Source: Bigelowiella natans CCMP2755 (taxonomy: Eukaryota > Protista > Cercozoa). Taken from it: 40,124 nt of DNA. The DNA lies in contig ADNK01001491.1 in assembly GCA_000320545.1 (NCBI GenBank), positions 1 to 40,124 on the forward strand, given 5' to 3'. Both the position numbers and the translations under genes were made by a program. Of the stretch, positions 1,965 through 34,539 are shown one piece after another. The notes below the pieces were generated by a model. That model saw only the letters and a list, made by a program, of their open reading frames with translations. It was not told the DNA's origin and ran no database searches. Position 1 is the stretch's first letter. The number at the start of each line of letters is the position of its first letter.

Positions 1965-2930
1965 TCTCGATCTAGAGATAGGATGCATGCATCGATTTGC
2001 GAGTGCTGCTGGGTTCTGGGGTTTGTTGGGCACCTCTAGACCTGTGCCCAGACCAGTCGTTGCGGTTCAAATTTTGTCAAAGTTTTCGAAAAAAAATCAC
2101 GCAATTCGCCCAGCTAGCCAGGTGTGTTGTGGCCGATCTAGCGCTGTGATGGACATCCCAATCGGACTCACAACAAGTCCCTGTGCGCGTGCATATGTCA
2201 TTTGTTGATGCGTATATGCACAAGAAAGGCATGCGTGCACATTTTGCATCCATCTCCAGATCTAGCCATGCATGCGTGCGACCATGTCTTACTTTCTAGC
2301 TCTCTGCGACACGCGCTGAAGCTCAAAATCGCCTTGAAAAGCTCACGCACGCTTGCTCAAACACAAAGATTGTCACAGGTTTGGTGGGGGCTGTCTAGCT
2401 GTGTGGCGCGCGCACATTGACTTTGATGCTGGGTTGCGCTCGCTCGTCAAAGATGAGTGAATTTTCTGCGACAAAATGCATTGAGTGCCACCACAATGCG
2501 CAAATTGAACACGGCATGCGGAGTTCATGATTGTGCCCAAGAATGACGCATGTGGACACAAAGCAGTGCGTGTCGTTGTTTGGTGAACGTCGGGTTGATC
2601 ATTCTCACACATCATCACGACTATTCAAGACATTTCATCCAGTTCCAGGCATCCACGTCTACATGTCAAATGGAAAACATCAAACTGTATCAGATTTTGA
2701 ATCAACCCAATAGTGTTGAAGTGAATCTAGTTTTTCAAATCACAATGAAGGCAGTGCATTGTTGATCAAAATGAAACAATGCAGTAGTACCCAACTCACT
2801 GTCCGTAGGTTTGGCACTTTTTTCTCCGTGCATGCCATAATTAGAGCTTGACGATGGATCAGTGATGAGGCTATTCATGTGATTGAAGTGCACCGCTTTC
2901 ATGTGACCCTGCAACATTGTCGGAAATCAA
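1965..2930. other. TpA-depleted intergenic patch
   Basis: TG/CA-rich; many surviving TA sit in CTAG/TAG/CTA (tctagag, cctctaga, gctagcc, tctagcg, gtctagct). Confidence 0.7.
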
Positions 2931-2949
2931 AAGTGTACTTGGAAAGAAA

Positions 2950-4300
2950 CACGATGAACGTTATGGGTCTATAAGAGTAACTTGTTTCATCTACCTTCAA
3001 GTGAGGTTTCTGTCTGAAAGAGGCTAAACATAAATCTGCGTATCATGAAAAAGGTATTGTTGAATTCTAATAGATCGATGCGGCAACACCTTAAGAATCC
3101 TTAAAATTCCTACAAAATATTTTATATGCTCACCGCAAGCAAATGGCCTCGTTCCAGTGTGGGACCGCTGATGGCGCCTTAATCTTTTAACCATATGCAC
3201 AATGTAATGTTATCATTGATGTAAATCTTAGAGGATGGCTTGAAGCCTCTTTTCAGTCAGCTATGTACCTATACTTAGTCTTGAACGACTTTGTGCAACA
3301 GCTACATCTGTCACGATAAAATTAAATTGTATGAGCTGATGACCAAACTTTTGATTTTCACAAACTCACGCATGTCGGTTTTTCTCGAGTTCTCTTTTAG
3401 CAGAGCTGGTGCTGCAGTTTGTCGTTTTCAATGTTTCTGGATTTTGCGTATTCTCGGGACACTGAGACTGAGCCGTTCTATGTACACTGCAGAACCAATA
3501 CCAATCAGGACTATTCTTGCTTTTTGGAAGGAATGACTCACCTGAACTTCAAACCAGACATAGACAACGGAAGCGCAATGTGAAATGTATTCCCATTAAT
3601 CCAGACCCTGCACTGAGCGTCTGCCGGAGCTCTGAAATTTATACTTTGTAAATAAAACGACAGAGCGCAGGCTATCTACAGATTACCCCATGTTTTGAAA
3701 TGTCAGTTGTATTTCATTTATCGTGTTGACAGGCACAGGGAAGGCTCTGGGGCAAGTTTTTGCTGACGAGGGGGTCAGTTTTCTTTTCTTCCCACTCTTC
3801 GGAGAGTCGTCCTCCAGCTGCGCTGCAGAGACTGGTGCAGCGATGGCTTTTGGGCTAGCTGCTGCTAAGGCGATCATTTTCCGTTTGTTCCCGATCCTCT
3901 GGGAGTTGTTCGCCAGCTGTGCTGCAGAGTGTTTTCCCTTTTGGGGGGGGTTAGAAGTGCGGATCGTGGGAATGGATTTGATCTAGCTCCATCCACGGTT
4001 TTTTCTCTGTTTCTGCAATTCTGTTTGTCGTTTTACCGGAATTCGCATGCATTCGAGTAAGATGCAACAAAATGTTCCACTTGAACCAAGTAGATCATTG
4101 CGCACATATGTGGTACTGTACATCATGATGAAAAATTTCCTGCGCCATTTGAGGTAGTAACTCCTTCGTTTTTCAGCGATTCTATCGGTCTTAACCTAGG
4201 CGTTTTCGCCAGATTCCAGCCGATCTTATTTCGATAAGGGGTACCTTCTTTCTTCTGCGAATCGGCACGCTTATTATCACATGATCACCAGCTTCATTTG
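2950..4300 (-). CDS. Probable multi-exon gene, unknown product; boundaries approximate
   Basis: Minus-strand coding-like blocks (AAASPKAIAAPVSAAQLEDDSPKSGKKRKLTP with an NLS-like KKRK; VWINGNTFHIALPLSMSGLKF at ~3542-3607) flanked by plausible splice sites. No recognised domain. Confidence 0.4.
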
Positions 4301-4995: not shown

Positions 4996-5491
4996 TATTC
5001 TAAATCAGTAGTGACAGTTATCTTGAGATTATATGTACACCTGTAAAATATCCGAAAATTAGAGGAAATGGTTGAACATTAGGGTTAGCACAAGCGCCGA
5101 TCGAAGCATCATTTGTAGGTATGTTTCCTATCCCCTAACCTAAGATCGATAATTGTATGAAAATGTGCAAGCCTATATTCTAAATCAGTGACAGTTATCT
5201 TGAGATTATGTGTACACTTGTAAAATATCCGAAAATTAGAGGAAATGGTTGAACATTAGGGTTAGCACAGGCGCCGATCGAAGCATCATTTGTAGGTATG
5301 TTCCCTATCCCCTAACCTAAGATCGATAATTGTATGAAAATGTGCAAGCCTATATTCTAAATAAGTAACAGTTATCTTGAGAGTATAAATACACCTGTAA
5401 AATATCCGAAAATTAGAGGAAATGGTTGAATATTAGGGTTAGTATTCTAAATCAGTAACAGTTATCTTGAGAGTATAAGTATAACTGTAAA
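4996..5491. repeat. Tandem repeat, ~177-180 bp unit (starts 4996, 5176, 5353 and partial 5443) carrying telomere-like motifs
   Basis: Near-identical units tattctaaatcag...gttatcttgag...aatatccgaaaattagaggaaatggttgaa..ttagggttag...cccctaacctaag. The third copy breaks right after TTAGGGTTAG. Confidence 0.92.
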
Positions 5492-5567
5492 GTCTGCGAA
5501 AATAAGATGAAATAGCAGGAAGAAAAAGAAAAGGAAGAAACCACTTTATAGATGTCCTTGCTCGTCT

Positions 5568-6280: not shown

Positions 6281-7087
6281 GGTGAGGATCACGACTGACG
6301 GCTATGTATTCCTTGTTACTATATTACTAGCTCACGCAGCTCGTTTTCCCGCCGCCGCTCCAAGGCTAGAATGCGTCAGTAGTAGCAGTAGCAGCAGCGA
6401 CAGCAGTGATTTGGATTCGACGTCCTTGTTTTGCTGATGCTCTTTGTCTGACTGTCTGTCATTACATTGAATGTGCCCCACACGCCATTTGTCACAGCGT
6501 TGTTGTTGGTGCTGCTACTGCTACTACTTGGATCCGCAGCCGCTGCATCCTCTGCCGCCGCTCCTTCGCTTTCTTCCCTGGGTGGCCCAGGGGGGGGAGA
6601 GAACCCTCTGATTTCTCCAGGATCTTGTGCGTGATTGGGAGGAGGAGGAGAGGGTCAAAAATTTCAACACAACAAACATGGTGCAATTGTCCCTCTGCGC
6701 CGCGCTTGCGCCCGCAACACGTCGCGCAATGTCGGAACAATTGACGGAAAGTGTGAACCTTTGATGAACACCATTGAACATCAAACAATTGGCACCAGTG
6801 TCAATCCCCATTGACACTGAGGATGCAGGATCATCTGCACAATTGCCGGCGCCGTCGCCGGTGTGATTCCTGCCTGGTCTCAACAATTGCGAATGCCAGA
6901 ACTCCGTCTGAAACATCACCCGATTGGGCAACACCCTCTCGACGCTGTCTTGCCTCTCCCCACCTCGCACCGACACCTCCCCAGGGTCGCTGCTTGCTCT
7001 TCGTCCTCTTCGTGTCTCTGCCTCTGCTTCCTTTCGGCCTGCCGCCGTTCAGTTCAATTGCGGAGACGTGATTGCCGTTTGCCAACT

Positions 7088-7204
7088 GCAATCCCCTCCG
7101 TTCACTTCCCTCTCCATCGGTCTCCTGGACTCAATTTGACACGGAGGCAATCCCCTCCGTTCGCTTCCCTCTGTGTCGATTGAACGGAGGCAATCCCCTC
7201 CGTT
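7088..7204. repeat. Three copies of gcaatcccctccgtt, two forming hairpins
   Basis: acggagg-caatcc-cctccgt (7141-7160) and aacggagg-caatcc-cctccgtt (7183-7204), directly abutting the left Harbinger TIR. Confidence 0.75.
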
Positions 7205-7665
7205 TGATCCCCTCCACGCAAGTGCAAACTGACCAACCAACTGACCAACCACCTTCGACGTCACCTGGTTTGATTTGTTTCACTTTCGAAGCGCCTTTTT
7301 GTGAAGACTGACCAACCAAAGTTTGAAATGTGACCAGTTTGCAACTTCAAACCGACCAGTCGGAACTGACCAGCACTGACCAGTGTTGTCGTGTTGTTGT
7401 CTGGTGCAAAATCAGAAAAAATCCAAAAACAACACGATTTTTCTCGTTGTGTCACCTCACGCACATCGTGCTGATGTCAAACCGAACAACATGCGCACGA
7501 TGTTGGTCCAAAGTGAGCCAATTTGAACGTTTCGCTTCACGTTCACACACTTGGCAAACACGTTTGAATCACGATGTGAAACAGAATGAACCGAAATCAT
7601 CGTGATGCTTTTGTCAAGTTTTCGTGAGGGGGAATTGAAACTGTGGTGTCGTTTCAGTCGTTTCA

Positions 7666-8960
7666 ATGGCGCCCTCTTTTGATGCTCTTGTCAAATTGTC
7701 GGCTGCATCCTCTTTGAAACGCTGGCAACAGCGTGCCGATGGCATGCGGAGAAAGATGGCCGCAGCCGTGGCCGTCACAACCATCGTGAGCGTGCTGACG
7801 GGAAAGAAGAGGAACAGACACAGGAAACAAATGAACTTCCTGCAGCACCTGCGTTCGTTCTCACCAAGTGCATTCAGGCGCACGTGCAGGATGCCCCTGT
7901 GCGTGTTTCACGAGGTGCTGGCAAAGGTGAAGCCAGACTTGGAGAGCAAGCACCCAAGAAAGGCCAGGCAGGATGGTGTGGTCCTGCCTGACATGGCTCT
8001 TTCAATGACACTGCGTCACTTGGCAGGGGGGTCGTGTCTTGACATCATTCGCCTGCACGGTGTCAGCAAAAGCAATGTTTTGTGCTGTGAAATCACGGGT
8101 CATTGAGGCCCTCGTGAAACACCACTTTCCTCGTGAATTCGATTTCACGAGGATGAAAGAATGCGAGTCGTCCTTTGCTCGCGTGAGCACCTGTGGCGAC
8201 GAGATGAGGGGTTGCGTGGATGCTGTGGACGGCCTGGCGGTCCACGTGAAGCAACCCTCATTGAAGGAGGATCCGTGTCAGAAGCGTTGCTTCAACAGGA
8301 AGGGCTGCTTCGCGCTGAACCTCCAGGCCGTCTGCGATGGCCGACGGGTGTTCACGCATGCAAAGGTTGCGGGCCCTGGTTCGGTCAACGACAGCCTGGC
8401 TTGGACTTTGTGCTCGCTGTCTGATGAAGTTGGTTCGGGGAAGTTGGGGGGTCACTGGTTCGCCGGAGATGCTGCCCACGGCAACAGTGACGGGCTGCTT
8501 TGCCCCCATCCCGGGAGGGAGCTGCCTCCTTCCAAGGCCAACTTCAACTGCCACTCACTTGTCCCAAAAGCGGATGAACGCAGAGTGTGCCTTCGGCATG
8601 TTGGTCGGCCGTTTTGGGGTGCTGTGGGCACCCCTGAAGTGTTCTCTCGCGGAGGCCGTGAGAACAGTGTGCGCCTGCATTGGGCCACACAACGTCACAA
8701 CTGAATTGACGCATGGCCTTCCTGTGGATGCCGACCTTCCACCCACAGTTCGCCACGTGCGCATCATGGGGAGGATGAGGCAAGGGCAGCCGCTGCCAAG
8801 ACTCAAGGTGACTTGTCGTGCTCCAAAGCTGGACAAGTCTGGCAGGCCATCGAGCCTGCTCAACTCGATCAACTCGAGTGGGGGCCGAACGCAGAGGTCG
8901 TGACGATGACTGTGCAAAGCGGGACCGCCTCACTCGCAAGCTTCAGACTGCCATCGACAA
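7666..8960 (+). pseudogene. Harbinger/HARBI1-type DDE transposase (DDE_Tnp_4-like), two frameshifts, Tyr-less
   Basis: Motifs FRRTCRM, LRHLAGGSCLDI, GCVDAVDG, FNRKGCFALNLQAVCD, GPGSVNDS, GDAAH, FNCH/LSQKRMNAECAFGMLVGRFGVLW, HN. Frameshifts near 8070 and 8555. The D, D and E catalytic residues are retained. Confidence 0.9.
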
Positions 8961-10048
8961 CATGCAGGTCTTGTGTTTGTCGTTTCATGAATGCGCTGTC
9001 AGGTGTCACTTGCAATGAGAAGAAGAGAAAATGGGTCGGCCGCAGAGGCAGCAGGTGGGAGAGAGGAAAGGTTTTGATGACGATGGATGTCAATGGCACT
9101 TGGCACCAGTGCTAGCACTGAAACCACATGACCACTGGCAGTGTGATGGTGACACATCAACCCCCCCTTTGTTAGCAGTGCCCTTGTCATTCTCGCCATT
9201 GCTTTTTGTTTCTGTTCAGTTGTGATGTGCACACATGTGTGCATGCACACATGCACATGTGCACAACAAACTCATCATTTGCAATTTCCATTCTTGCAAT
9301 TTGGAAGATGCAACTTGTCAAAACTTGACAAAAGGTTTCAAAAGAAAAATTCATTGCATTTTCATTGTGCAGTGCAATGCTGTGTCATTTCATTGAAAAT
9401 GATGTAGTTGCCTAGCTGCTCTTTGTTGACATCTGCGAGTTTTCACACACACAGCAATGGCACACGCATTGCATGTCTGTCATTTTCCCCCCAATGTTGT
9501 TTGAGTTGCAACTGTTCCAGGTGAGGCCTCGCCCCCATCCCCGTGAGTGAAACAGCAGTGTGCTGATGAATGGACAGGTGGTGCATTTTCCATTTTCCCA
9601 TTTGCATTGCATTGCATGATCATTTCAATTTCAAACAACACGTGATGTGTTTTTTGCGAGCAACCTCATTTGGCAGTCTTCCATTTGAAACCTCTGCTTC
9701 CAATGATCTCAAAAAAAAACTGAAAGATTGGAATTGGAAGAACTTCGCAAGAACAACAATGCAGTGGTGTGTGTGTTTGCGTCCCTCTGTTGTGGTGGGG
9801 GACATGTGTCTACGTCCCTCCTCCAGGGATGTGATTTCATTGCCTCAAGAATGTCTTGTTTCTGTTCGCTACATTTGATCCCTTTCTCGATTCCTTTCAG
9901 TGCTTCATTCTGCTCTTCACAATCATTCAAAAGATTTCCGCTGCAATTGAGAACATCACACTGCAAAAGATTTTCGCTGTGATTAAGAACATTGCACTGC
10001 GCAGTTTTGTGATGATGAATTCAATGTTCCAAATGTCAAATTAAAAAT

Positions 10049-10120
10049 CAGCGAACACTGGTTTCGATCCAGTGTCCTCCTGGTTGTGGGCCAGGCACGC
10101 TACCTCTGCGCCACTTCGCT
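10049..10120 (-). tRNA. Initiator tRNA-Met-derived gene with mutated anticodon CAC (probable pseudogene)
   Basis: Minus strand AGCGAAGTGGCGCAGAGGTAGCGTGCCTGGCCCACAACCAGGAGGACACTGGATCGAAACCAGTGTTCGCTG then ATTTTT. Full cloverleaf with A1:U72, C33 and a GATCGAAA T-loop (A54/A60), typical of eukaryotic tRNAi-Met. Pol III T-run terminator follows. Confidence 0.88.
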
Positions 10121-10172
10121 ACGTCATTGTCCTTTCATGTGCCAATTTGCAAATTGCTGATCGGACAAATCA

Positions 10173-10201
10173 AGGTCTCACCCGGATTCGAACCGGGGTT
10201 G
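10173..10201 (-). pseudogene. 3' fragment of a tRNA, Gln-like
   Basis: Minus strand CAACCCCGGTTCGAATCCGGGTGAGACCT is a T-arm plus 3' acceptor strand ending in ACCT, as in eukaryotic tRNA-Gln. The 5' half is replaced by sequence related to the 101-bp repeat. Confidence 0.6.
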
Positions 10202-10579
10202 CATGTACGTGCATGACACGCATCGCGCACATGCACGTGTCACGAATGGTGCGAAATGACGGTCTTGTACATGAATTAGCTACTGCAATTGAAGTAACTA
10301 GATTGAACATGAATCATTGGTGCGCAGGACTTCGAGGATTAAAACCAAATCATCCGGAAGATGATGATTTCAACAACAGAACAGATGAGCGCTTAATGAC
10401 GATGAAACATCATGATTTTTGCTTTCAGCATCTGATCAACAAACATTTCGGTGCAAACAAGATTGTCAATGTTGAGTCCTAATTCGGACTGTTGACGGTC
10501 ATTTCATGTGTTCAAAAATGAATTGCAGCACGTGCACGTGTGTGCAAGCAGGAGACAAAGTGCACAGTGCACATGCAGT

Positions 10580-10860
10580 GCACGCAATGCACTCAAGTTG
10601 CAACGCACGTGCATTGCATCTGCACAGACGTGTGCACGATGCACACGTTGCATCACGCACATGCACGCGTCACGAATGGTGCACATATGCAATGCGTTCA
10701 AGTTGCAATGTGCATTCCATCTGCACAGACGTGTGCACGATGCACACGTTGCATCACGCACATGCACGCGTCACGAATGGTGCACACGTGCAATGCGTTA
10801 AAGTTGCAATGTGCATTGCATCTGCACAGACGTGTGCACGATGCACACGTTGCATCATGC
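10580..10860. repeat. Tandem repeat, 101-bp period, ~2.8 copies (related partial copy at ~10221-10252)
   Basis: tgcacagacgtgtgcacgatgcacacgttgcatca recurs at 10621, 10722 and 10823. Confidence 0.9.
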
Positions 10861-11124
10861 ATCTTCACAGCGTACTGCTCGAGGACGAGTGGAGATTGTC
10901 TACCATTTGTCAACAACGTCCCAACGAAAAATCTTTGAGGAATTTTGTGGAGAATGTTGCTGAATAGTTCCAGTGTGCGAGTAATTGATTTTCTCCATTG
11001 CAATCATCACCACTCTACCACAGTTTGCTTGACTACTACTACTATTGCTACAATGGAAAAATCATCAAATAGTTCTGCTAATCATTTGAAATGAAGATGT
11101 TAATAATGTCTAATCATTGGAACA

Positions 11125-12696
11125 TCAGGCAGCGTCATTGTGGCAGACGTTCGCCATCTCATGCAGCTTCCTTCGCATTGCAGCGAGTTCATTCTCAAAG
11201 TATTCCTTCATGTCGGATTTCACTAGTCCCTTGTCTAGCCTTTCCTGCAGCTCGAAGAACCTGTTCTCCATCAAGGTTTTGGTGCGAATGTTCGAACACA
11301 CGAGTTTGTTGTGTTCGATTTTGTCCACGATGTTTGGACGAAAGCTTCGCGACAGCACAGACTCCAAGTCTTCCGTCGTCATGTTTCGCAACCGCTTCCT
11401 GCTGCTCTTGCTGCTTTTTGTGACGGAGCTCACAACGCTGTCCCCGTCACTTCGATTGCAGTCCCCGAGCTCGACAACAACATCGCTTATGTTCGATGGC
11501 ATGGAGCTGTCGAACAACGCGGAGGCGATGTCCCCATTGGTTTTTCTCATGCCAATGTTCAAGTAATATTGCACGTAAGACCTCCTCCTCTCCCAGTCAG
11601 CTTCCATGTCGGAGCCAGGATCCTCATCCGGAGTCTCCTTCATATGAAGCACGTACGACTGGGGAGCCTTCCCCTTCTTCCAACAATAATCGAAGAAGTC
11701 AGGATCATTGTTTCCTGACTTCTCGTAGTTGTGCAATATTCGCGTACGAGTGGCACGCATCTCGTTGCGATATCTCTGCAGCTTGGCCACTGTCTGATGT
11801 CCAGTCCACTTTGCTGGATCAAACAGAAGTACCCCATTTGCATTTTGAAGGAGTGGATCGTTAGGGGCGTAATGTTCCGGCTTGAACGACGGATTGTTGT
11901 ACAAAGCGTGGACAGAACGCCAATAGCGATCAGTGGGACTAACTCCTTCAAAATCCTCCTTGTTCATCTTCCTCTCCGAAGCAGAATACAGCTCAAGGAG
12001 GCTCCCCTCAGTCCACACGCTGTTAGGGGAATGCTCAGCCATGTCTTCTAGGACCTCATTGGACAACCGTAGATTACTTGAGCATATTATGTGGACCAAC
12101 CGTGCGCTACAGCTGTCTGACCACCTTGCAGTGGCTTCGTTCTTGCCTGCAGTCGTTTGGAGCTTCAAGTCTACATCATCACCAATGTGATCTGTTCTCC
12201 TGCTTGAATTGCTCTTCATCACTTTACCATTGACATATTTGATGGCCAAATTCAACCGATACTCCTTGCTGGTTCCTTTCGATCAATCAGGCACATTGTT
12301 TTCCTTCAGCCATTTCTTTAAGTCTATCCCACTCATCGCACGCAGTTTGCCCACTATATATTCATCTATTTCATCCGTGCCACCTTCAGAAACGTGGGAA
12401 CGCTCACTTACTGACGTCATTGAATCGTCAATGGATCCAAAGGTTGGTGTGGGACTCACAAAATTTTCAACGGAGACACCAGAGGCACACATTGATGGTT
12501 TCACAGTTTCCTTCACATCAGCGCTCGATACGTGATCCACCACATCGCGCACCTTTTCTGTGGTGATGACAGACGTGCATGGGGCTAAAGACAGGGTTTT
12601 TTTGGACTCAACGGCCAAGGTATGGCCTGCAACACCGTGCGTTGGGGGGGGGTCCAGAACCGTAACGTGAGTGGCATCCATCTTTTTATTTTCCAA
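11125..12696 (-). pseudogene. Harbinger second ORF (Myb/SANT-like DNA-binding protein) with one in-frame TGA at 12283-12285
   Basis: ORFs 12283-12696 and 11125-12255 are in the same frame. RWSDSCSARLVHII...YWRSVHALYNN...KLQRYRNEMR...NYEKSGNNDPDFFDYC resembles Harbinger-associated Myb/SANT-like proteins; C-terminal coiled coil; lies inside the TIRs. Confidence 0.65.
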
Positions 12697-13259
12697 TATT
12701 TTCGGTCAACATGATGGATTGATACCCAACAAATATCTACACACCGCAGAAATCCACTAGTCGAGATTCGAGATTGACGTCGATTGCGATGGGCATGTTT
12801 CCAATCAATGGACCGCAACAACATCGATGATATATCAACATATTTTGGTCAAAATTTGAAGTCAATTCAAATATTTTCATAACGAAATTGGTCAGATTGG
12901 TTGGTCATCAGTCAGTTTTGTATTTGCGTGGAACGAGCAAAAATCCATGAAAATCAACATCCAAAATCACCAAAAAAAAACCAACGCAGATTGGTTGGTC
13001 GGTTGGTCAGTTTGTATTTGCGTGGAACGGGTCTTATTAAATAGGCAGTAATACGTAAGTTACGTGACTTTAAGGGCGTAAGTTACCATTCCAAGGTATA
13101 TCTTAAGATATCTTAAATTGAATGGTCATGTCGCATTCTAAGAATGCTGGGGATTTTGCTGTCGAAAGAGCACACTTTTGGTGCTTTCTTCACAGAAACC
13201 TCGACCGCCACTGATCCCCCATTTAGTCACGTCGTCACTTCAAATGACGATGGGATAAG

Positions 13260-14571
13260 ATGGATGCGAAGAACCCAACCACTGCCCGGCATGGAATGCT
13301 CGACCGTGCAGCCATGCCCGAATTCAAGTGCGGCGAGCAAGAATTTACGATTGAAATGAAACTCGGGGAGGGTGCTACATCCAAGGTTTGGAGGCTTTTT
13401 ATTCACACATATCATGGAAGTGTTGGAGACGAAAATGAAAAAGTGATAGACACGGAAAGAGAAACCAATTGTAGATTTTGTCGTTGTGTGCCCTCCTTCA
13501 ATGACGCATATTGCTGTCCATTTGCCAGCAGGGACTAGAGATGTATGGTATTAAGACTTCCTATTTAGTGCAACTGTTATGATGCCACCAGGTCTTCATT
13601 GCAACCGCTAAATGCAATCCCAAATTCAAGGTGCAGCATACACATGCCTTGCCATTTTGTTTCAATGCAAACCATTTTGTTTCAATGCAAACGCGATAGC
13701 TACAAGAAGGCTTGTTTCTAGACATTTCTGACAGTAGTCCTGCTGTATATTCTTGGGAAAAAGAATTAAGAAGTTCTTTTCATCGATCACCAAGATCCAG
13801 CAAATGATTCGTAAGACATATTCTGCTGAACCGCTTTGAGCTGTGCTTGAGAGCCAAGAGCGAGGGTGTGCACTAGCAAGTATCTTGCTACCAGCGAATA
13901 AAGAAAAACGCAATATAAGTATAATGTCTCTATTCACACCCAGATTGCCGTAAAGCTTATGCCTCGGAAGCACAGGAAGTTGGCATGGACAGAATACCAA
14001 ATTCTAAGGTTGTTCCCTCCTGTTTGATTCCTTGCTGTTGAGTTTTTTTTCCCTATGGTAAGTACATTGCCTACAGAGTTCCGAATGTACTGCCCAAGGA
14101 AAAACATAACGATGGCGAGTTTCTCACTCTTATTTAGGAAGCTAAATCACAAGAATATCGTTCGATTGGTCGATAAGTTCTCTCCATCGAAAGGAGATAT
14201 CAGATGCGGTAATTCCATAATACTATCGTCAATTCTACTGATTGAGTACTGCATTTACGCACTGGACAGCCGACTTTCTGCACCAATCGTCCTTTTTCCA
14301 AAAAAATGACTGAAATTATGCGCTTTATGATAATACGGGGCCCCTTTTCATCCAGGAATCACGATGAATTACATTCCAGGAGACGATCTTTACGGGTATT
14401 TATTGATCTGAATATAACTTTGCGTTTGGAGTTTATCGTCGTTTGATAGTATCGAGAGACAACCGTACCCTATATTCCCAATATCCAGCAAGCATCATAG
14501 TTTGAAGATGTCTGTGCGAAAGAGCGTTTGATTTTAGTCCGACGGGTTAATATACACGCCGCACATACACA

Positions 14572-14603
<32 letters not shown>

Positions 14604-15889
14604 CACATATACTTCCTCAGATTTATGTTGTCTGCAAAATGCCTTCATGTGAAGACTGTGGCCACCATTATGCTTCAATTAGCAAACGCTGTCGCATACA
14701 TGTAATAATAACCTTAATCCGTATTGCCAAGGACTACTTTAATTTGGAGTCTGAAATGAGTGTCAGTCTGCTTCATCTATCTTTACCCAGCTATGGATAT
14801 TAACTTAACTCAGGCATTCAAAAGGCATTATGCACAGGGATATCAAAATGGAGAACATCCTGATCGTAATTGAAAACTAGAGCAATTGTTTGATGTCACT
14901 GTCATTGCTGGCAAAAGTACTTTAGTTTTACGTTCGAATTTTCACACGATGCAACATCGTTTTACCTTTGTTTTCACACAATGCAACATCGTTGCTGTTG
15001 TTCCTTTGTTTAGTGCAAATCCAACGATAAAGAACACAAAATCGTGCTCATCGACTTTGGCTGCGCGACTACGTCTCGATCCTCGTAAAATGAGAATCTA
15101 GACATAAATGAAAATATTGGGCTGAAGAATCATGGACATCCTAAAATAAATACTCTGCTCTATTTCAGTAGATTTTCTTAACTACGCACGACCCCCACAA
15201 CAAGGGGGTAGCAGCAGCACCATAGGAATGAAGAAACCAAACAATCGTTACCGAGCATCCCACTCATCTTATAATCTATTGAATATGTTTAGGATTCGAT
15301 TTTGTGGATCGCTGTACTATTTAGCACCCGAGATAGTCAGGGTGAGCAAATCAAAGCCATACAACCGCAAATTAGACGTATGGTCTATGGGAGTCGTCGC
15401 GTTTACTCTCAGTTGCGGGTACTATCAGTATAGAATGGAGGCTTTCGAACATTCTATACACGATTCTACATAGATTTATTCTCACTTTACTACATGTCGT
15501 GTCGTTGCTAGATTCCTCCCGTTTTGCTTCGACAACAGAGTAGATACGATGAAGGCAATCTGGTAATAGTGGTTTTCTTAAAAGAGAGAGCGCCGATGTA
15601 GAAGATTGAAATCCGTTGTGTTTGTTCTCGAACGATAGTTGTGGCACATTGGTCTTTCCCTTCTGGGTCGAAGAGTCAATCACAAAGATCATAAGGAAGA
15701 TGCTGGATCCTAACCCAACAACTCGGCCAGATTCCAATAAACTCGTGCAGTACTTCGAGTACCTAGAGAGTATATGCAGTAACCGCACGAGCCGTTTCTT
15801 CACCCTGCCTTTGTATAGACTTCTGGAACTATCAATGGAAGAAAACTGCAGGAAGCAAGTGATTGTGAAATATGTGCACACATACACAT

Positions 15890-16721: not shown

Positions 16722-17020
16722 CTCAAACAGGAAGTCATCAACGACACCGATGGGGAGCCATCGCCGTATCCGGGTGGACAATCGCGGCAGCTTTCTTACC
16801 GAAAGTGTACGACAACACAGCGCGTGAAGATAATGCAGGGTTTTGCCGCAAATCAATGCTTTACAAGAGCGCAGCATTTTGATTCGCCCACGGAATCCTG
16901 CGCCAAAGGCTGTTCAAAACTAAGATCAAGAGACTTAGCAAGATGATGAAGGCATGGAGCTTATTAGACGCAATGAGTTGGCGAAGAAAGGCCATCAAAG
17001 AAGGAACACTTCTCAAGTAG
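13260..17020 (+). CDS. Ser/Thr protein kinase (CAMK-like), multi-exon; 3' end approximate
   Basis: Exons encode LGEGATSK|VFIAT, IAVKLMPRKHRKLAWTEYQILR|KLNHKNIVRLVD, MNYIPGDDLY, GIMHRDIKMENIL, IVLIDFGCA, FCGSLYYLAPEIV...LDVWSMGVVAF, IRKMLDPNPTTRP. All catalytic motifs are present. Confidence 0.9.
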
Positions 17021-17089
17021 CACAAAAAATAGGAACTGACGAAACACGAAGCGACAGGAAGGAACACAATTCTACTCGCTGAGCAGACT

Positions 17090-17800
17090 GTGGACTCGAA
17101 ATCAAATGAAAATGAATTGCAACATGATTTACCTTAGTTCCACGGATGCGAAGCATGCATGTGGACCGTGTGCATGCTGGACACGCATGCTAGCACGCCA
17201 GCGCACGCAATGTTGGTGCAATGCACGTTCTGCACACACGACGTTGCTGCATGTACGTGTCCTCTGCTAGACTGGTCTCGCAGTCTGTTTGTTCATGGGA
17301 TGCTCTCACATGCAGACATGCAATGCAACACACTGCACACCTGGCTAGCTGGACATGTTCTCTGCACACGTGACATTGCTGTCTAGCTGTGTCCATCATC
17401 GCTGCTCATGCACTTCTAGACTTGAACGCTGGCACGCAGTTACATCAGGGTGACCATTGAAAACATTCAGCAATCATGCACTTCGTTGCATGCATGAGCA
17501 CGATGCATTGCTGTGTCCATTGTTTGCACCCGCTAGCCCGTCTCACGCATGCTGCGATCATCCTCCACGACAATGCTAGAATGCTAGAATGGTCTGTTTC
17601 TAGGTTTTAGTGTTCCAAAATGCACCATCGATGAACGAATCAAATGTGTACCAGTCTTGCAAGCAGTGCAATCAACAGTGCACACAAGATCTAGCGATGC
17701 TAGGATGCGTGTTCTTCTGCACTTGCTGTCCAGAATGTCTAGATGTGAAAGCAGCAGTGAATGCTAAACAATGCGATCGTTACTACATCTTATAACTACA
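17090..17800. other. TpA-depleted intergenic patch with CTAG survivors
   Basis: TG/CA-rich; roughly a dozen CTAG make up most of the remaining TA. Confidence 0.8.
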
Positions 17801-23783: not shown

Positions 23784-24224
23784 AATGAATCGGCACTAGC
23801 TGTCGAAACTTTACTTCTTTCTGCAAGGGGGTGGGTCACCGCACTCACAGGTTCGACTGGCTGAGCTCGAATTACGGTTAAGTTCCAGAGACTTACTCAT
23901 ATTTGTGATGTACAATTGGCAATTTTATTAATTTGTCGAATTTTGGCGTGTCTTTCAAAATAAAGTACAGGGTTTCAAACATAATAAAGTTGGTCGTTGT
24001 TACCAAAGAAAGACTGACATTCAAGAACCGCAGTCGAGTTTCTATTTTGGAAAGACGACACTTTTTTTGGCTATGACGCTAGTTGTAATCGCCCGTATAA
24101 AGATATGTGTGTACATTTGGAAAATCGTAGGAGAATTTTCAAGAGAGTCTGCGTTCAAGTAATGTCGGAGGTTCCTGAACAAATCCTCCCGAAGATGGTC
24201 ACCGCGGAATCAATTCATGACCCT

Positions 24225-24550
24225 TGTTGCGCGTAAGGTGTTCACAGGCCGAGGCGCTACGTGCACAAGTAGGCAGGGGGGGGGAAAGGCACGTTTGCTT
24301 CCTTTTGAAGAGTTGTGTTTATTTTTATTAAAGATTATATTTTTATTAAATCGTGCACTGCGTAATCATTCGCGAAGCTTTCGCGAATGCCGCCGCACGT
24401 GGGGCAGCACACTTCCGGTGTGCTGCCATGAGTCCCGCCGGAACCCACGTGCCTATGCTGTATTAATATCTACGTTATCTATATTCTATATCCGCGACAA
24501 CCCCTTTGTTGTCGCACGTGACTTGTGCCCGCGTAGTGGTACGCGCTACA
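24225..24550 (-). repeat. 3' LTR
   Basis: Direct repeat of 29615-29940; terminal inverted repeat tgttgcgcgta / tacgcgctaca (10 of 11 match). Confidence 0.97.
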
Positions 24551-24558
24551 CCTCCCCC
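24551..24558 (-). promoter_or_regulatory. Polypurine tract
   Basis: Minus-strand GGGGGAGG immediately before the 3' LTR; further (GGAA)n purines upstream. Confidence 0.8.
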
Positions 24559-24601
24559 AAGTCACGTTGCTCCTTCCTTCCTTCCTTATTCCCTTAGACC
24601 T

Positions 24602-27600
24602 TCATCGCTTTCGGAACTTCACCAACCACCAGGTAATAGATTCCTCTCTAACCTTATCTCCTTTGTCGCTTACCCAGAACTCACCTTCGTCCTTAGGTTC
24701 GTGTCCATACCAGCCCTCTGCATCAAGGTCCCCCAGGACCTTATACCAGTGCTCAAAGGGTAAGTCGGGAACAGCTAGGTAGAGTAGCTGATATTTTCCG
24801 TCCTTTATTTTCATAGCTACCCTCTCCATATTTCGTAATCCAGGGTAGCCTAGATAGACAATCTTCATGCGCCAATCGTCGTTCACCCTGACCTTATTGT
24901 TTCCATATTCCACATCGAACTTAGGTCGGGGTCCTAAACAAGGCATTGCTCGCTCCCACACAGTAGGGTTTACTTTAACATCCTCTAGGAGCTTCTCACC
25001 GATATCATAATTCTTTAGGTGACTGATGTGGCGCAAGGTGACCCTGTTCCCATCATAGATGTAGTACTGCTTCCTCCCCTTCCTCTCGGTAACCTTTGCA
25101 ACGCCACCCCAGAAGGGGTCTTGTTTATTTCTCGATCTCAGATTTACCTTGGCCCTAACATACTGTCCTTCCTTTAGAACTCGGCCATCGTACGGGACCT
25201 TCTCGTCTTCGCTCTCGGTATCGTCGTCGTTGTCGTCGCCTTCTTCCCTCTCCTTATCCTTGATACCTCCCCCAGACGTGAAGGTGTCGTTTACTAACCC
25301 TTGTATCTTGTCTGGTGTGGTGCTATTTATCCTGCTTAGGTTGGCCAAGGTGCGGTGGAGTCGCTCTACCTTGGAGTTGGACTGGGCATAGTATACAGGT
25401 GAGGCATCAATATTAGGGTGTGGTAGCTGTAGAAGAGAGGTCTCATTATCCACATGTAACTTCTTTGGTATCTTGTTTATGCTAACTTCATCAGGGATAG
25501 CCTGGAGCTCAGACTCCCAGGTACGGTAGCAGTTAGTAAGCCTCTGCTTATATAAGCCTTTGTTCTTCTTAGCAACGTTGACCTTGATAATCTTTTTAAC
25601 CCAGCACTTTCCAGTGGCCACATCAACGAAGGTAAGGTAGTGATAGCCATCGTACTTATAAACATCAATTTGCACGATATCTAAGAAGTTCCTTGCTTTG
25701 ATTTTCTTAGATGCACGGCTCTTGCTGGACTCCTTGGTGGCGACGCCTGCCGCCTTCAAGCTGGAGCACCTGCAGCCACGCAGGTATGTCCTTATCTCTT
25801 TTAGCTTGTAGGGCCAGTAGTAATGGTAGAGTAGAGCAGTGATATGGTTTTCTCCTACGTGTGCAGGTCCATGGGCGGTAAAGAGAAGGGCTCCCCTGGT
25901 CCGCCGTGGCACGTAGGTACGCCTAACATTATTAGTGTATACATATATCCTATCACTAAGTACCTCATGCTTGTGTTTGTATTTATCCAGGTGTTCTTGA
26001 AGGTGCTGGAGCTCCTCTGGCTCAGGCAGGAAGTCGCCGTCCTCGAAGGTAATCGCGTTAACCATAGGGGTGACCTGGGTAGGGACTTTCTTTTCGAACA
26101 GCCTGCTGAAATAGTCAGCAAGCTGCTTGTCTCCTGGTGCGTAGACCACTGTCCTCTTGTCCCTAAACTCTTCCGTGTCCGCCCTCATAGCTGCATACTC
26201 ATCGTTAGGCGCTTCGAGCTTGCGGTCGATGCCTAGGAGGGGCTTGTGGTCAGTCATTAAGGTGAAGCTGGGCACCGACAGCAGGTAGTGTCTTAGTTTC
26301 CTCTGCGCCTCAGTCATGGCTTTATACTCTCCTTTTGTAGGGCTGTACTTGGCCTCAGCTGCTGTGCAGGCCCTGCCCCACACCCGTATGATCTGCTGGT
26401 CTTGGGTAAGTACAGCAGCCATACCTAGCTTAGACCAGTCTGTCCATAGGGTAGCTGGTCTAGTAGTGTCTAGCTTAGCATTCAATAGGGTGTTGCTGCA
26501 TAACTTTATTAGGTTATCGAAGTGGGCATCAAGGCCAGCCTTGGCCCACACCTTAGCGAAGCTGAGGCCTACAGAGTTCTCCTTCCGGTAAGCAGTAGTA
26601 AAAGCAGCTGCAGTCCTAGCGTAGGTAGGGGAGAACCTACGTAGTATCCAAGCTGCAGTCTGCAAGAATGACTTTAACTCCTTTGCATTCTTAGGTTTAG
26701 GGGCTTGCTGTAGTGCTGCTACTTTCTCGGGGTTTGGGGTGATGCGGCCTTGCTCCAGGTAATATCCACACCACTTGATTCTTGTAGCTAGGAATGTACA
26801 CTTCTGCAGTCTAATAGTAAAACCGAAGTGTGCAAACCTAATAAATATATTTTCCAGGAGGAAGATCTGAGCGACGACTGTGTTGGTACATATTATGTCA
26901 TCATCCACATACACAAACACAAACACCCACAACACAGACGCCATCCCATCATGTGTGTATGCCCTGTAGTTCTGACTACTGAACGCATCCCCTGATATGC
27001 TTAGGCCGTAAGGGAATACGACGAAGTGCCACTTCCTGTGCCTGCTGGAGAACGCGGTAATGGGGCGGGAGGTTTTGTGGATGGGTGTCTGCATGTATGA
27101 TTCATTTTTATCTAGGGAAGAGTAGTATTTGTATCCTATGACGTGTTCAATAACGTCATCTATCCTTGGTGTAGGTGTCTGGATCCTCTTTATTACTCGG
27201 TTGTGGCGGATGAAGTTGTGCGCCAGGCGGAAGAAAGGGTAAGTAGGTTTCTTAGCTAGCACATGTCTCACGTTCCATGGTGAGTTGCTTGGCTCTATCT
27301 TCCCTTCCTTTGCCCATTCATTGATCTGCCACTCTATCTTTTCCCAGTCCGCTTCCGGTCGCCTATGTTCTGGGTCATTGATGATGCACTCTTCGTATCC
27401 CTTCTTTAGCTCGATCTTTACTGGGGTAAGCTTGCTGGAGGGCTTCGTCGTCGGCTTGGTGATGTCAGAGTACTTCTCGTTTAATATTTTATTAATGTAC
27501 TTTTTGCCTTTGTCGATATCCCAATCATCAGCTGGGGGGGTCTTGTCCAGTAGCTCCGTTATCTGTCGGATGGTCTTGCCGGGGTTCTTCTTCCGTAGCT

Positions 27601-29575
27601 CGGTAGGTGTAGGTAGCTTGTTGTCCGCTAGGTCCATAAACTCTAACGCATTAACGCTTGACTCAGAGGTCCACTCGTCAAGCCGTATCATGTTCTGGCT
27701 GATGGTCCTGCCTGACTTCTTTGGCAACTTAGCAAAGTATATCTTGTGATTGTAGAATGATATGATCCCCCCTAATTTTTCTAGGGCATCCTGTCCGAGG
27801 AGTAGTTCCATGGATAAAGTCATGGCTACTCGGGTCTTGATTTGGGTCTCCGCGTCGCTGCCAGGTATCTGTAGCTTTAGCATTAGCTCACCGACGGTCT
27901 TCATGGAAGAGCTTCCGTCTGCTTGAGCATATTTACGTTCTTTCTTAGTCACTTGATCCAATAGTCCTAACCTTCTTACTGTGCTTAGGCTTATGAAGGA
28001 CTTCGGCATGCTGCCACTATCCCAAAGGGCAGGTAGTTTCTTGTAGTCTCCGTAGCTGTCTTTAACTTTAACCTTGGTCATAGCAACTTTGATAGTCCTG
28101 TTAGCGTCTTCGTCATTAATGTTGCATACTCCTAAGTTCTTTATGTCGTCTAGGGTCATGGGCTTGTCTTGGTCCTGCGTTGCTGGTACTGCTGTCTTCG
28201 TCGGCGCCTGCTTAAGGTGATCTAATATTCCGTTTATCTGCTGCTGTATAGCATTGATACTGTTCTGCTTTTTGTTCTTATATTTATTGTTCTTCCCGTT
28301 GTTGCTGCCTTGCCATTTGCTGTTGTTATATCCTTGTCCTCTGCCTTTCTTTCTCTTTAACTTCTCGTAGTGTTCGTTGAGCTGCCTGATCGTCATCCTG
28401 GGTCGTCCTTCTTTCCTGTCTCTGCAGTCTTTAGCGGTGTGTTTCCCTTTACGTGAGCAGTATCCGCAACGTCGGTTACCTTCCCTGTCCTTGTACCAGT
28501 CTCGCTGCGGCTTAATAGCGTTAATGTTTCCTATGCCAGGTACCTTAGGGCTGGTAAACTTGCGGTCCTGCTCCTGCTCGCGTAGGGATATAGCCTGCAC
28601 TGCTGCCTCCATCGTGGTGTAGCCTTTCTCCGTAACGTAAGTGGATTCCTTTATCTTTAACTTGAACTCTTCAAACCTTGCCTGATCATCACCTGTGTTG
28701 TAATTAAAATCATGTAGTTCGTCGATCATATCCTGGAAGCGCGTGGCAAAGTCTCTAACAGGTTCTCTCTCATGCTGCATCATTGCTCTGTATTTTCTAA
28801 TAGCCTGGGGTAGGGAGTTAGCATCCTGTTCATTTACAAAAGCCTTCATTATCGCCTCAACGTCTCGTAGCCCACTAACTGTAGTGTGTATTTTCTCTAG
28901 CTGCCTGATCCGGGTCCTGCCTGTCTCGTAAAGGTCCATGGCTTGCTTTATTATAGCTAGCCATTTGAGCTTGTCGTTTTCGGTGGGGTTAGGGGTAAAG
29001 TCGCAGAGTATACTCCTAGCGTTCTTCCACCACCTCCTTGCCTCACCTCTTTTCCCGTTGTATTTCGTTATCATAACCGGTGCTGTTTTAACAGACATGA
29101 ACTGGGTGTTCCGCTGTACCGGCTGCTGCTGCTTGACGGTGCTCTGGGTCGTCCCCCGCGAGGCGCCCAGACCCCCGTCGTTCCTAAACAAAGCTGCCCA
29201 CTCTGGAGGTAAGTCTGCTTCGTAATCCATGATGTCCTGCATGATAGCTGCCCAAACATCATGTGTCTGATACTTGTATTCTATCGATACTTTCAGTTTG
29301 GCGTAGTTGCTCGCCCTGGGTCGCAAGGCTCGTAATGCCATTACGACCTTCTTGCTTTCGGCGGCCACGTCCTCGTCGTCCGCCTCGTAGAAGTTCTCCA
29401 GTGCCTCTGCTGCTGCATCTGCTTTCTTAATCCCGGGTGCTGGTCCCGGCGGTGCCTGTGGAGGTGTTCCTCCTCCTTCCTTAGCGTCCGTATCGCCCTT
29501 CCTTTCCTGTTTCTGCTCGTGCCCTTGCACGGCCTGCGAGCCAAAGTCCTGCTGTTCTTCTAGCTGCTGTGACAT
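24602..29575 (-). CDS. Gag-Pol polyprotein, 1657 aa, with C-terminal Dam-like extension
   Basis: Zn knuckle CGYCSRKGKHTAKDC; protease LWDSGS; RT SSLD...PYGL...YVDD; RNase H TDWS...E...TDHKPL...ADYFSR; integrase H-x3-H...CRC, QID...VDNE...SNSKVER; GPY/F-like module; ~134-aa extra domain. Confidence 0.97.
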   Translation of the reverse strand: MSQQLEEQQDFGSQAVQGHEQKQERKGDTDAKEGGGTPPQAPPGPAPGIKKADAAAEALENFYEADDEDVAAESKKVVMALRALRPRASNYAKLKVSIEYKYQTHDVWAAIMQDIMDYEADLPPEWAALFRNDGGLGASRGTTQSTVKQQQPVQRNTQFMSVKTAPVMITKYNGKRGEARRWWKNARSILCDFTPNPTENDKLKWLAIIKQAMDLYETGRTRIRQLEKIHTTVSGLRDVEAIMKAFVNEQDANSLPQAIRKYRAMMQHEREPVRDFATRFQDMIDELHDFNYNTGDDQARFEEFKLKIKESTYVTEKGYTTMEAAVQAISLREQEQDRKFTSPKVPGIGNINAIKPQRDWYKDREGNRRCGYCSRKGKHTAKDCRDRKEGRPRMTIRQLNEHYEKLKRKKGRGQGYNNSKWQGSNNGKNNKYKNKKQNSINAIQQQINGILDHLKQAPTKTAVPATQDQDKPMTLDDIKNLGVCNINDEDANRTIKVAMTKVKVKDSYGDYKKLPALWDSGSMPKSFISLSTVRRLGLLDQVTKKERKYAQADGSSSMKTVGELMLKLQIPGSDAETQIKTRVAMTLSMELLLGQDALEKLGGIISFYNHKIYFAKLPKKSGRTISQNMIRLDEWTSESSVNALEFMDLADNKLPTPTELRKKNPGKTIRQITELLDKTPPADDWDIDKGKKYINKILNEKYSDITKPTTKPSSKLTPVKIELKKGYEECIINDPEHRRPEADWEKIEWQINEWAKEGKIEPSNSPWNVRHVLAKKPTYPFFRLAHNFIRHNRVIKRIQTPTPRIDDVIEHVIGYKYYSSLDKNESYMQTPIHKTSRPITAFSSRHRKWHFVVFPYGLSISGDAFSSQNYRAYTHDGMASVLWVFVFVYVDDDIICTNTVVAQIFLLENIFIRFAHFGFTIRLQKCTFLATRIKWCGYYLEQGRITPNPEKVAALQQAPKPKNAKELKSFLQTAAWILRRFSPTYARTAAAFTTAYRKENSVGLSFAKVWAKAGLDAHFDNLIKLCSNTLLNAKLDTTRPATLWTDWSKLGMAAVLTQDQQIIRVWGRACTAAEAKYSPTKGEYKAMTEAQRKLRHYLLSVPSFTLMTDHKPLLGIDRKLEAPNDEYAAMRADTEEFRDKRTVVYAPGDKQLADYFSRLFEKKVPTQVTPMVNAITFEDGDFLPEPEELQHLQEHLDKYKHKHEVLSDRIYVYTNNVRRTYVPRRTRGALLFTAHGPAHVGENHITALLYHYYWPYKLKEIRTYLRGCRCSSLKAAGVATKESSKSRASKKIKARNFLDIVQIDVYKYDGYHYLTFVDVATGKCWVKKIIKVNVAKKNKGLYKQRLTNCYRTWESELQAIPDEVSINKIPKKLHVDNETSLLQLPHPNIDASPVYYAQSNSKVERLHRTLANLSRINSTTPDKIQGLVNDTFTSGGGIKDKEREEGDDNDDDTESEDEKVPYDGRVLKEGQYVRAKVNLRSRNKQDPFWGGVAKVTERKGRKQYYIYDGNRVTLRHISHLKNYDIGEKLLEDVKVNPTVWERAMPCLGPRPKFDVEYGNNKVRVNDDWRMKIVYLGYPGLRNMERVAMKIKDGKYQLLYLAVPDLPFEHWYKVLGDLDAEGWYGHEPKDEGEFWVSDKGDKVREESITWWLVKFRKR

Positions 29576-29591
29576 TGTTAGTCAAATCGTT

Positions 29592-29609
29592 TCCCGTGTG
29601 TGGAAGCCA
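29592..29609 (-). promoter_or_regulatory. Primer-binding site
   Basis: Minus-strand TGGCTTCCACACACGGGA, starting 5 nt after the 5' LTR. The primer tRNA was not identified (loosely Glu/Asp-like). Confidence 0.65.
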
Positions 29610-29614
29610 AAGGT

Positions 29615-29940
29615 TGTTGCGCGTAAGGTGTTCACAGGCCGAGGCGCTACGTGCACAAGTAGGCAGGGGGGGGGAAAGGCACGTTTGCTTCCTTTTGAAG
29701 AGTTGTGTTTATTTTTATTAAAGATTATATTTTTATTAAATCGTGCACTGCGTAATCATTCGCGAAGCTTTCGCGAATGCCGCCGCACGTGGGGCAGCAC
29801 ACTTCCGGTGTGCTGCCATGAGTCCCGCCGGAACCCACGTGCCTATGCTGTATTAATATCTACGTTATCTATATTCTATATCCGCGACAACCCCTTTGTT
29901 GTCGCACGTGACTTGTGCCCGCGTAGTGGTACGCGCTACA
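29615..29940 (-). repeat. 5' LTR
   Basis: Matches 24225-24550; followed on the minus strand by the PBS and the gag ATG. Confidence 0.97.
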
Positions 29941-29944
29941 CCCT

Positions 29945-30850
29945 TGGGCCCTTAGGCAGTGACTGTTAGCAGCAGTGGTGACAGTCTAGCAGTGTGGTAG
30001 CAGTGGCAGCGATGACTGCACATCCACCTACCGGTGTTTGAGCTGAACTGACGAAAGGCTAATCACTCTCGGCTTGCTAGCTTGGGATTGAACCTCTGAG
30101 AGATCAATCACACGATCACACTTGTTGTTCCAGTGCCATGTTGGAATCCCAATTACCAGACTGAGACACCCAATCATTGCATGCGTGTGCTTATCCAACC
30201 TCAATGTGATGCAAAAAAGAACAAGAAAGCACACAACAAGTCAGACTTGCGTCTTCCTGCGACATGGCACATCATTCACGTGCGTTTGTGGCTCACGTTG
30301 AACTCGCTAACTCGTCTAGACGTCTAGACGTCTAGATCTAGAGAATGAGATGTGTGGACGTGTGGACCACATGATACAAGAATGGAGATGATTTATTTGC
30401 TCCTGCGCTACAATGATGTTGCATGCTGCTTTTGTCAACTCCATTCTGCCAGTCTAGCATTCTGTGAACGTGCATCAAAAATTCAAAATTGCTTTCAAGT
30501 TCAACACACAGACACCAAATGTGTGCAAATGTGTCACACAATGTGCTCACTGCCCTGGCATTTCGAGATTATTCTTGCGTCGATCAAATCTAGAAGTGAA
30601 CAAGTGATTTCCCCACATGCACGCATGCTCTGTCATTGCATCATGCTGGCATCATGCCATGACACTGCGTTGTGATGAGTTAACGTGGTAGCAGATTAAC
30701 ATCAGTGGGCTTCCTGTTATTGTGTCTAGCAATGCTGACTTTAATGCGTCTACCTGCAACTCTGAACCCATTCATGCATTGAACCGCAAATTCAGCTGCC
30801 TGCAACATAGGAGAGTACGCTTTAGGTGTCAAAACGAAATGTGCACATTC
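29945..30850. other. TpA-depleted patch flanking the LTR element
   Basis: TG/CA-rich, survivors mostly TAG/CTAG (gtctagacgtctagacgtctagatctag at ~30314-30341). Confidence 0.75.
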
Positions 30851-31454
30851 GCTTCAGACAGATTAGATTGGTGTAGTTTTAGATCATAAAAATACAACAA
30901 TGATAGCCTTTTACTAGATCAAGAGCCACAAAAAATGTAATCAATAATTTATGAGTGTTCCAGTTCCAAAAATGGTTAATTTGATGGCAAATTTGATTGC
31001 TATGAAAATACGTGCTTGATTTCTCAAGGTCGAATGAATTGTTGATTGATTTCCCCAGATAAATGTATCCGAAAAATTCAATTAATGCGACAATCAAAAT
31101 GCTAACTCTATGCAATAGCATTTGGCAAATTAAATTCCATAATTGTAAACCATTTGAAATTCCCATCCTCAGGCGTTTGGAAATCATATTAATTGATTAA
31201 ATATGAATCAAACCTTTTCAGAATCGAATTGTACAAAACCATAGCACTTGCTCAGTCCAGTCAGCAGGTCGGTAACTATACGGACATTTTCCACGTTTCC
31301 ACATGTTCGAAAGAGGAGAAAAAGATCCTAAATGAAATATCATTAGTCTCACTAAATCAACAAACATACACGACTTAACCCTTACTGGATTTCGAAAAAT
31401 TTGAGGCAGATTACAAACAAAGATGCTGCATCCAGTTCCTGTGATTTAATTAGG

Positions 31455-34533: not shown

Positions 34534-34539
34534 ATGCTA

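Follow-up and report, generated by a model that had tools for sequence, protein, structure and literature searches.

A gene derived from an initiator tRNA-Met, reading CAC in place of the CAT anticodon, is present in a 40,124-nucleotide stretch of Bigelowiella natans CCMP2755 DNA (contig ADNK01001491.1), hereafter the window. Judged from its sequence, this gene is with high probability borne by a transposon, its anticodon and discriminator base having likely been rewritten by the TpA mutator of the alga; a misfold of its product is predicted, and the gene is probably dead. In the course of events that we propose, an initiator tRNA-Met gene would have become lodged in an element of Harbinger type, TpA would have been erased across that element by the host mutator, striking the U36-A37 and U72-A73 steps, and an ordinary transversion (C66>G) would have broken the acceptor stem. 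Observed directly are the sequence, its three differences from the nearest CAT relative, the loss of TpA around it, the transposase and the host-gene fragment; a single element, the capture of the gene as cargo, the mutator as the agent and the loss of function are deduced from these. A more specific reading, namely a virus-derived initiator tRNA that became Harbinger cargo and was recoded from Met to Val but is dead, has in our estimate an even chance of being correct. The mutator itself is already known for B. natans, and the tRNA example and the possible viral cargo are modest additions. The features of the region are summarized in Table 1.

Table 1. Features annotated around the initiator-type tRNA gene (positions in the window)
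Feature	Position	Strand	Remarks
TpA-erased tract	6527-10960		
Proposed left end, with an imperfect motif at its terminus and GACCAACC/TGACCA subterminal repeats in an oriented array	7205-7385	+	
PIF/Harbinger-type transposase (DDE_Tnp_4)	7666-8903	+	two frameshifts, no Tyr codon, no TA
Host gene-family fragment (Zn-cluster/ankyrin/kinase; Bigna1 67140)	9766-9936	-	TpA-mutated
T5 run adjoining the 3' end of the gene (candidate Pol III terminator)	10043-10047	-	
Initiator-tRNA-Met-derived gene, anticodon CAC	10049-10120	-	72 nt; probable pseudogene
Second tRNA 3' half (T arm and acceptor 3' strand, U73)	10173-10201	-	most like tRNA-Gln
CA/TG-rich unit of ~101 bp, ~2.7 tandem copies	10584-10861		
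Second ORF, convergent, annotated as protein P0121	11125-12705	-	in-frame stop at 12283-12285
Proposed right end: left-end motifs in inverted orientation	12840-13035	-	

Identity of the tRNA gene

Initiator-type motif scans, in which T or C was allowed at position 36, returned at least 148 matches representing at least 124 distinct bodies; bacterial-type Met genes without the initiator pattern were excluded from the 124, and all 16 of these had CAT. The closest body among the matches listed is a metagenomic tRNA-Met(CAT) gene on a giant-virus-type contig (L027), identical at 69 of 72 sites, followed by L056 with 66 of 72 (six differences), and the next body listed is 14 differences away. All 124 distinct bodies (148 matches) listed have the anticodon CAT, their discriminator is A73 in 120, T73 in four and G73 in none, and G at position 66 occurs in none of them. 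In viral_contigs, neither the CAC form, scanned for directly, nor the T arm, sought as an exact motif, had any match, and blastn against a phage collection gave no match. A literature search, which is not proof of absence, turned up neither a description of this gene nor a naturally occurring initiator with CAC.

The Rfam tRNA model scores the gene at 49.9 bits. Its anticodon loop reads CC-CAC-AA, with the anticodon at 10088-10086 (C36 at 10086), and its discriminator is G73 at 10049, both as the original prediction, made from the letters alone, had read them. The initiator hallmarks named there, A1:U72, C33 and a T loop (ATCGAAA) with A54 and A60, are all found, together with C3:G70, and position 38 is A. 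Three G:C pairs at 29-31/39-41 are among the features given for eukaryotic initiators in the available text of PMC3950347; the gene has two of the three, the first being replaced by U29:A41. This pair also occurs in L027 and in 33 of the 124 CAT bodies among the matches listed, so it is inherited and not damage. L027 has the same A and B boxes, letter for letter, and the gene is followed by a T5 run at 10047-10043, in agreement with the earlier description of intact boxes and terminator. The earlier description of a complete cloverleaf fails, since G66 (10056) stands unpaired opposite G7 (10114), a C66>G change that had been overlooked, and a misfold is predicted; the pair 7:66 is marked as non-standard in the Rfam match.

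ARAGORN labels the gene tRNA-Val(cac), the mislabelling that had been foreseen, and the CAC anticodon agrees with an ordinary tRNA-Val. The comparison of initiator and Val models suggested beforehand was run by profile, the initiator profile comprising 133 initiator genes with L027, L056 and L149 left out, and the Val profile about 20 Val genes. Against this Val set, which is bacterial/phage-type only, the gene scores 22.4 bits, versus 55.8 as an initiator, so that it does not score best as Val; its best matches reach 40.5 (Val) and 67 (initiator) of 69 anticodon-masked positions. The 69/72 identity to a tRNA-Met(CAT), the A54/A60 loop and G73 also argue against an ordinary tRNA-Val(CAC), whose probability is negligible. 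By its sequence, the gene body is that of an initiator-Met, not of a Val tRNA.

A second trivial reading, in which the unusual bases arose as errors of sequencing or assembly, is similarly negligible. Over 501 bases, the window agrees letter for letter with the contigs of both DNA runs, which belong to different studies and either of which may be the source of the window; this identity argues that the bases are not an error, and the changes match the regional TpA pattern. At a low threshold, Rfam returned chance matches only besides the tRNA. Matches to sigma-70 promoters and terminators were discarded as irrelevant, the locus being nuclear.

Nature of the three changes

Relative to L027, the gene carries T36>C, A73>G and C66>G (3 of 72 sites). 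The first turns TA into CA and the second TA into TG, both at TpA, and the third, at 10056, does not involve TpA. The near-identical CAT gene thus bears out the earlier claim that both of the changes then recognized lie at TpA and follow the mutator direction. Under a simple model, two TA>CA/TG changes among three differences have a probability of 0.002-0.009, and T36>C and A73>G are likely the work of the alga's TpA hypermutation. Because every initiator gene has TpA at anticodon positions 36/37, such a gene would be prone to turn into CAC or A37G once its tract is targeted.

Two of the three TA sites of the L027 gene are converted in the window gene and one survives. With a second surviving TA at the 5' edge of the gene (10121-10120), two of the four TA sites touching the gene persist (A1 and the D-loop A21), a number in keeping with the survival rate of the surroundings (P 0.11-0.35); selection on A1 and A21 need not be invoked, as that rate suffices. 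The original prediction had noted one surviving internal TA in TAG context; the survivor is real, but the context is not special, given that the 46 survivors on both strands of 6527-10960 comprise 16 TAG, 14 TAC, 14 TAA and 2 TAT. Protection by TAG was rejected on this count.

TpA erasure in the window and in Bigelowiella natans

Hypermutation of foreign DNA from TpA to TpG/CpA has been described in B. natans (Mettrop et al., bioRxiv 10.64898/2026.01.13.699255). According to the available text of that preprint, the proposed mutator is an adenine deaminase, DDE endonucleases are enriched among TpA-depleted genes, 124 depleted clusters occur genome-wide, and active mutation was measured in an NCLDV and virophage region; the same text mentions tRNA once, for ADAT enzymes only.

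Within the window, TA is absent over the 2.6 kb of 6527-9112 (130.6 expected) and occurs 23 times in 9113-10960 (139.1 expected); across 6527-10960 the observed/expected ratio (o/e) is 0-0.22 for TA and 1.3-1.9 for CA+TG. Over the proposed element (7205-13035) the loss is asymmetric, being complete on the transposase side and partial over the second ORF (11125-12705), which is half spared (TA o/e 0.44). A full-length LTR retroelement at 24224-29913, whose two 300-nt LTRs are identical and whose gag-pol ORF, on the minus strand, encodes 1659 aa, has a normal TA o/e of 1.05; it is young or as yet untargeted, and serves as a mutator control.

The TA-free tract extends about 680 bases past the proposed left end (6527-7205). 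Short CCCTCCGT inverted units lie at 7090-7205, the rest of this interval is without a family match, and no ORF in 6370-7180 has a credible Pfam match; mutator spreading or a second element may account for its lack of TA. Low TA with high CA/TG is also observed at 2001-3000, 17001-17500, 30001-31000 and 34501-35000 (o/e TA 0.3-0.6, CA 1.6-1.9), and these four stretches may be older mutator-targeted repeats. Between the two DNA runs there is no difference over 501 bases, a small sample, and mutator activity at the tRNA locus looks past or slow.

A candidate Harbinger-type element

The transposase matches DDE_Tnp_4 with an E-value of 5e-11 and stands at 63% to its relative P0122. Counted in the in-frame stretches, with out-of-frame ones dropped, the 11 Tyr of P0122 face 7 His, 3 Cys and 1 Phe in the transposase, so that Tyr>His/Cys changes can be polarised in 10 of 11 cases, and in a further 3 of 3. 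The second ORF has no Pfam match; its atlas leads, all sub-threshold (<0.9), are to Myb_DNA-bind_4, MADF and NAM-associated domains.

At the proposed ends, an inverted motif of 36-39 nt pairs 7213-7251 with 12991-13026 at about 85% likeness, and at each end the GACCAACC/TGACCA array faces the interior; together these suggest a single element of about 5.8 kb, and 7205-13035 is likely one such unit. Two adjacent elements flanking a native tRNA locus are a possible alternative, which gains from the imperfect ends, whose outermost 14 bases match at 11, and from the lack of a matching 3-bp target duplication (TTT on the left and TTA on the right, where end placement is uncertain). Clean terminal inverted repeats (TIRs) were not found at the proposed ends either.

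Elsewhere in the window, a gelsolin is 100% identical to a Bigna1 protein, tandem 177-bp AT-rich units at 5010-5532 are 94-97% alike with TA intact, and pieces of a putative protein-kinase-like gene, read from several short ORFs, lie at 13227-15700 on the plus strand.

Probable cargo between the transposase and the second ORF

The initiator-type gene, in the likely case of a single transposon, would be passenger cargo accompanied by other captured-looking pieces. The kinase fragment (57 codons) retains 46 of 57 residues of the host family, and 7 of its 11 differences are explainable by TA loss. The tRNA-Gln remnant lies 52 nt upstream of the initiator-type gene, repeat-derived DNA stands in the place of its 5' half, and a partial copy of the ~101-bp unit (10220-10252) abuts it; exact-motif scans for this remnant in viral_contigs gave zero matches. 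We infer that the kinase fragment, the tRNA, the Gln half and the 101-bp repeats form a mosaic typical of cargo. The Gln 3' half was also considered as part of a permuted tRNA, a reading rejected for want of a matching 5' half nearby; the permuted tRNAs of B. natans given in the available text of PMC3978253 are nucleomorph Ser genes.

Origin of the tRNA: giant virus or host

L056, extended as L149, comes from a contig with a GVMAG label and 19% GC. It shares with L027 a glycosyltransferase upstream of the tRNA, which places both in one giant-virus-type lineage. The nearest relatives of the window gene among the matches listed are on giant-virus-type contigs, in a comparison set without nuclear eukaryote initiator tRNA-Met genes, and the similarity of L027 to the window covers the tRNA and about 12 nt of 3' flank only.

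In the contigs of two same-species DNA runs searched at 85% likeness, which cannot prove absence and from which a filter may have dropped records, no near-identical CAT copy was found. Paralogous pieces of 33-35 nt near the tRNA were recovered in the same search. A single 3124-nt contig crosses the tRNA unbroken, including 34 bases identical to L027; since a host twin should split the contig at these bases, given a word size of 31 letters, the unbroken contig favours a foreign donor. The original prediction had tacitly taken the gene for a mutated copy of the host's own initiator family, which agrees neither with the lack of a near-identical copy in these contigs nor with the giant-virus-type relatives.

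A host donor, in which the B. natans initiator tRNA was copied or resident and the L027/L056 virus lineage took its tRNA from a chlorarachniophyte-like host, is nevertheless a minority possibility to be weighed. The adjoining cargo includes a host kinase fragment, the tRNA remnant 52 nt upstream recalls a genomic tRNA pair, and tblastn of 15 ORFs of L149/L027 against the window gave no match, so that no viral protein gene was found beside the tRNA. Chlorarachniophyte giant viruses exist and, in the available text of PMC13196603, carry up to seven tRNAs, which are possibly host-derived. Set against these points are the missing near-identical contig in both runs and the unbroken passage through the 34 bases, and a giant-virus donor appears, on the sequences compared, somewhat the better supported origin.

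Two observations concern the viral contigs themselves. Two related, interspersed ORFs for putative C2H2 zinc-finger proteins occur in L149 (1120-2076 and 8171-9133), resembling the repeated zinc-finger genes of algal mimiviruses. The motif TCTA lies just upstream of the tRNA in L027 (510-525), a weak sign for four bases in DNA of 19% GC; TCTA is described as a late promoter motif common to ChlorV and CroV (PMC13196603, available text).

Folding, charging and function

In an unmodified RNA model, a crude approximation that modifications could overrule by rescuing the cloverleaf, the cloverleaf of the gene lies at -22.4 kcal/mol versus a minimum of -28.3 kcal/mol; for L027 the cloverleaf is the minimum. 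Introduced singly into L027, the changes lower the cloverleaf probability from 0.37 to 0.17 (C36), 0.35 (G73) and 0.0002 (G66). C66>G opens the acceptor stem at its base and allows the T stem to extend, which makes a non-cloverleaf structure the predicted minimum.

Charging is predicted to suffer as well. The Met determinant is the CAU anticodon and the Val determinants are A35, C36 and A73, with C38, according to the available text of PMC9976931. The gene has A35 and C36 and lacks A73 and C38 (G73, A38), so that the loss of CAU and the replacement of A73 by G would weaken the Met and the Val routes alike. One raw RNA-seq run, of a non-tRNA library without a positive control, gave no reads on the tRNA in the roughly 6% of the run that was covered, with read lengths of at most 60 nt. 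The gene is probably a dead pseudogene with no tRNA function, and its product, if transcribed from the intact boxes, is predicted to misfold and to charge poorly.

The original prediction had raised, as speculation, a GUG-reading product of the initiator body. Such a tRNA would be transcribed by Pol III, charged with valine and either start at GUG or misread internal GUG. The intact A box, B box and T5 run and the retained A1:U72, C3:G70, A54 and A60 are compatible with it, as are the Val determinants A35 and C36; wheat-germ ValRS was indifferent to A73 in a viral tRNA-like structure (PMC9976931, available text). Initiation at GUC in mammalian cells by initiator tRNAs with engineered anticodons, as cited in the available text of PMC11744186, also speaks for it. 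Opposed to it are the G7:G66 mismatch with its predicted misfold, the presence of G73 and A38 where Val identity calls for A73 and C38, the position of the gene within a tract targeted for erasure, and the occurrence of CAC in none of the 124 natural bodies among the matches listed. We regard this rival as very unlikely, a working GUG-reading initiator as hardly to be expected from the folding and charging predictions, and its fullest form, a virus-derived cargo tRNA turned by the mutator into a transcribed, valine-charged GUG initiator, as highly improbable too.

Relation to known systems

The window shares with the B. natans hypermutation of Mettrop et al. the species, the TpA>TpG/CpA direction and the depletion of DDE genes. 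Active mutation is measured in the available text of that preprint in an NCLDV and a virophage region, whereas the likely target here is a DNA transposon with host and tRNA pieces, and the changes are polarised against an outside gene.

The giant-virus initiator tRNAs (L027, L056/L149) and the window gene have in common A1:U72, C3:G70, A54, A60, U29:A41 and the promoter boxes. The window gene differs from L027 and L056 in CAC, G66 and G73, and in its place, which is likely within a transposon of the nucleus, where viral genes do not flank it.

PIF/Harbinger elements and gene-capturing 'Pack' transposons are known for a DDE_Tnp_4 transposase, a Myb-like ORF, inverted repeats and captured fragments, and gene capture by DNA transposons reportedly occurs in maize. 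The proposed element resembles them in its DDE_Tnp_4 transposase, its inverted subterminal repeats and its host fragments, and may do so in its convergent ORF, given the weak Myb-like leads. Unlike them, it shows no clean TIRs or 3-bp duplication at the proposed ends, would carry tRNA genes as cargo and has a transposase eroded by A>G/T>C, not C>T, changes.

Fungal repeat-induced point mutation (RIP) destroys mobile DNA by dinucleotide-specific transitions that spill over neighbouring sequence. The same holds here, where dinucleotide-specific transitions affect mobile DNA and may spill over into adjoining sequence, but in this case the direction is opposite, TpA being destroyed and GC raised, and the stretch looks single-copy in the contigs, which gives no sign of a repeat trigger. 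RIP is also named in Mettrop et al. (10.64898/2026.01.13.699255).

Implications

The gene offers a clean polarised case in which the B. natans mutator acts on non-coding DNA and transposon cargo, beyond integrated viruses. For annotation, it means that a call of tRNA-Val(CAC) in genomes of this kind can hide a mutated initiator gene. Were the GUG reading true, a genome-defence mutator would have created a new decoding specificity. If the donor was a giant virus, the locus would record the passage of a translation gene from virus to nucleus. The gradient across the window, with the transposase side erased, the second ORF half spared and the LTR element untouched, provides a starting point for studying mutator targeting.
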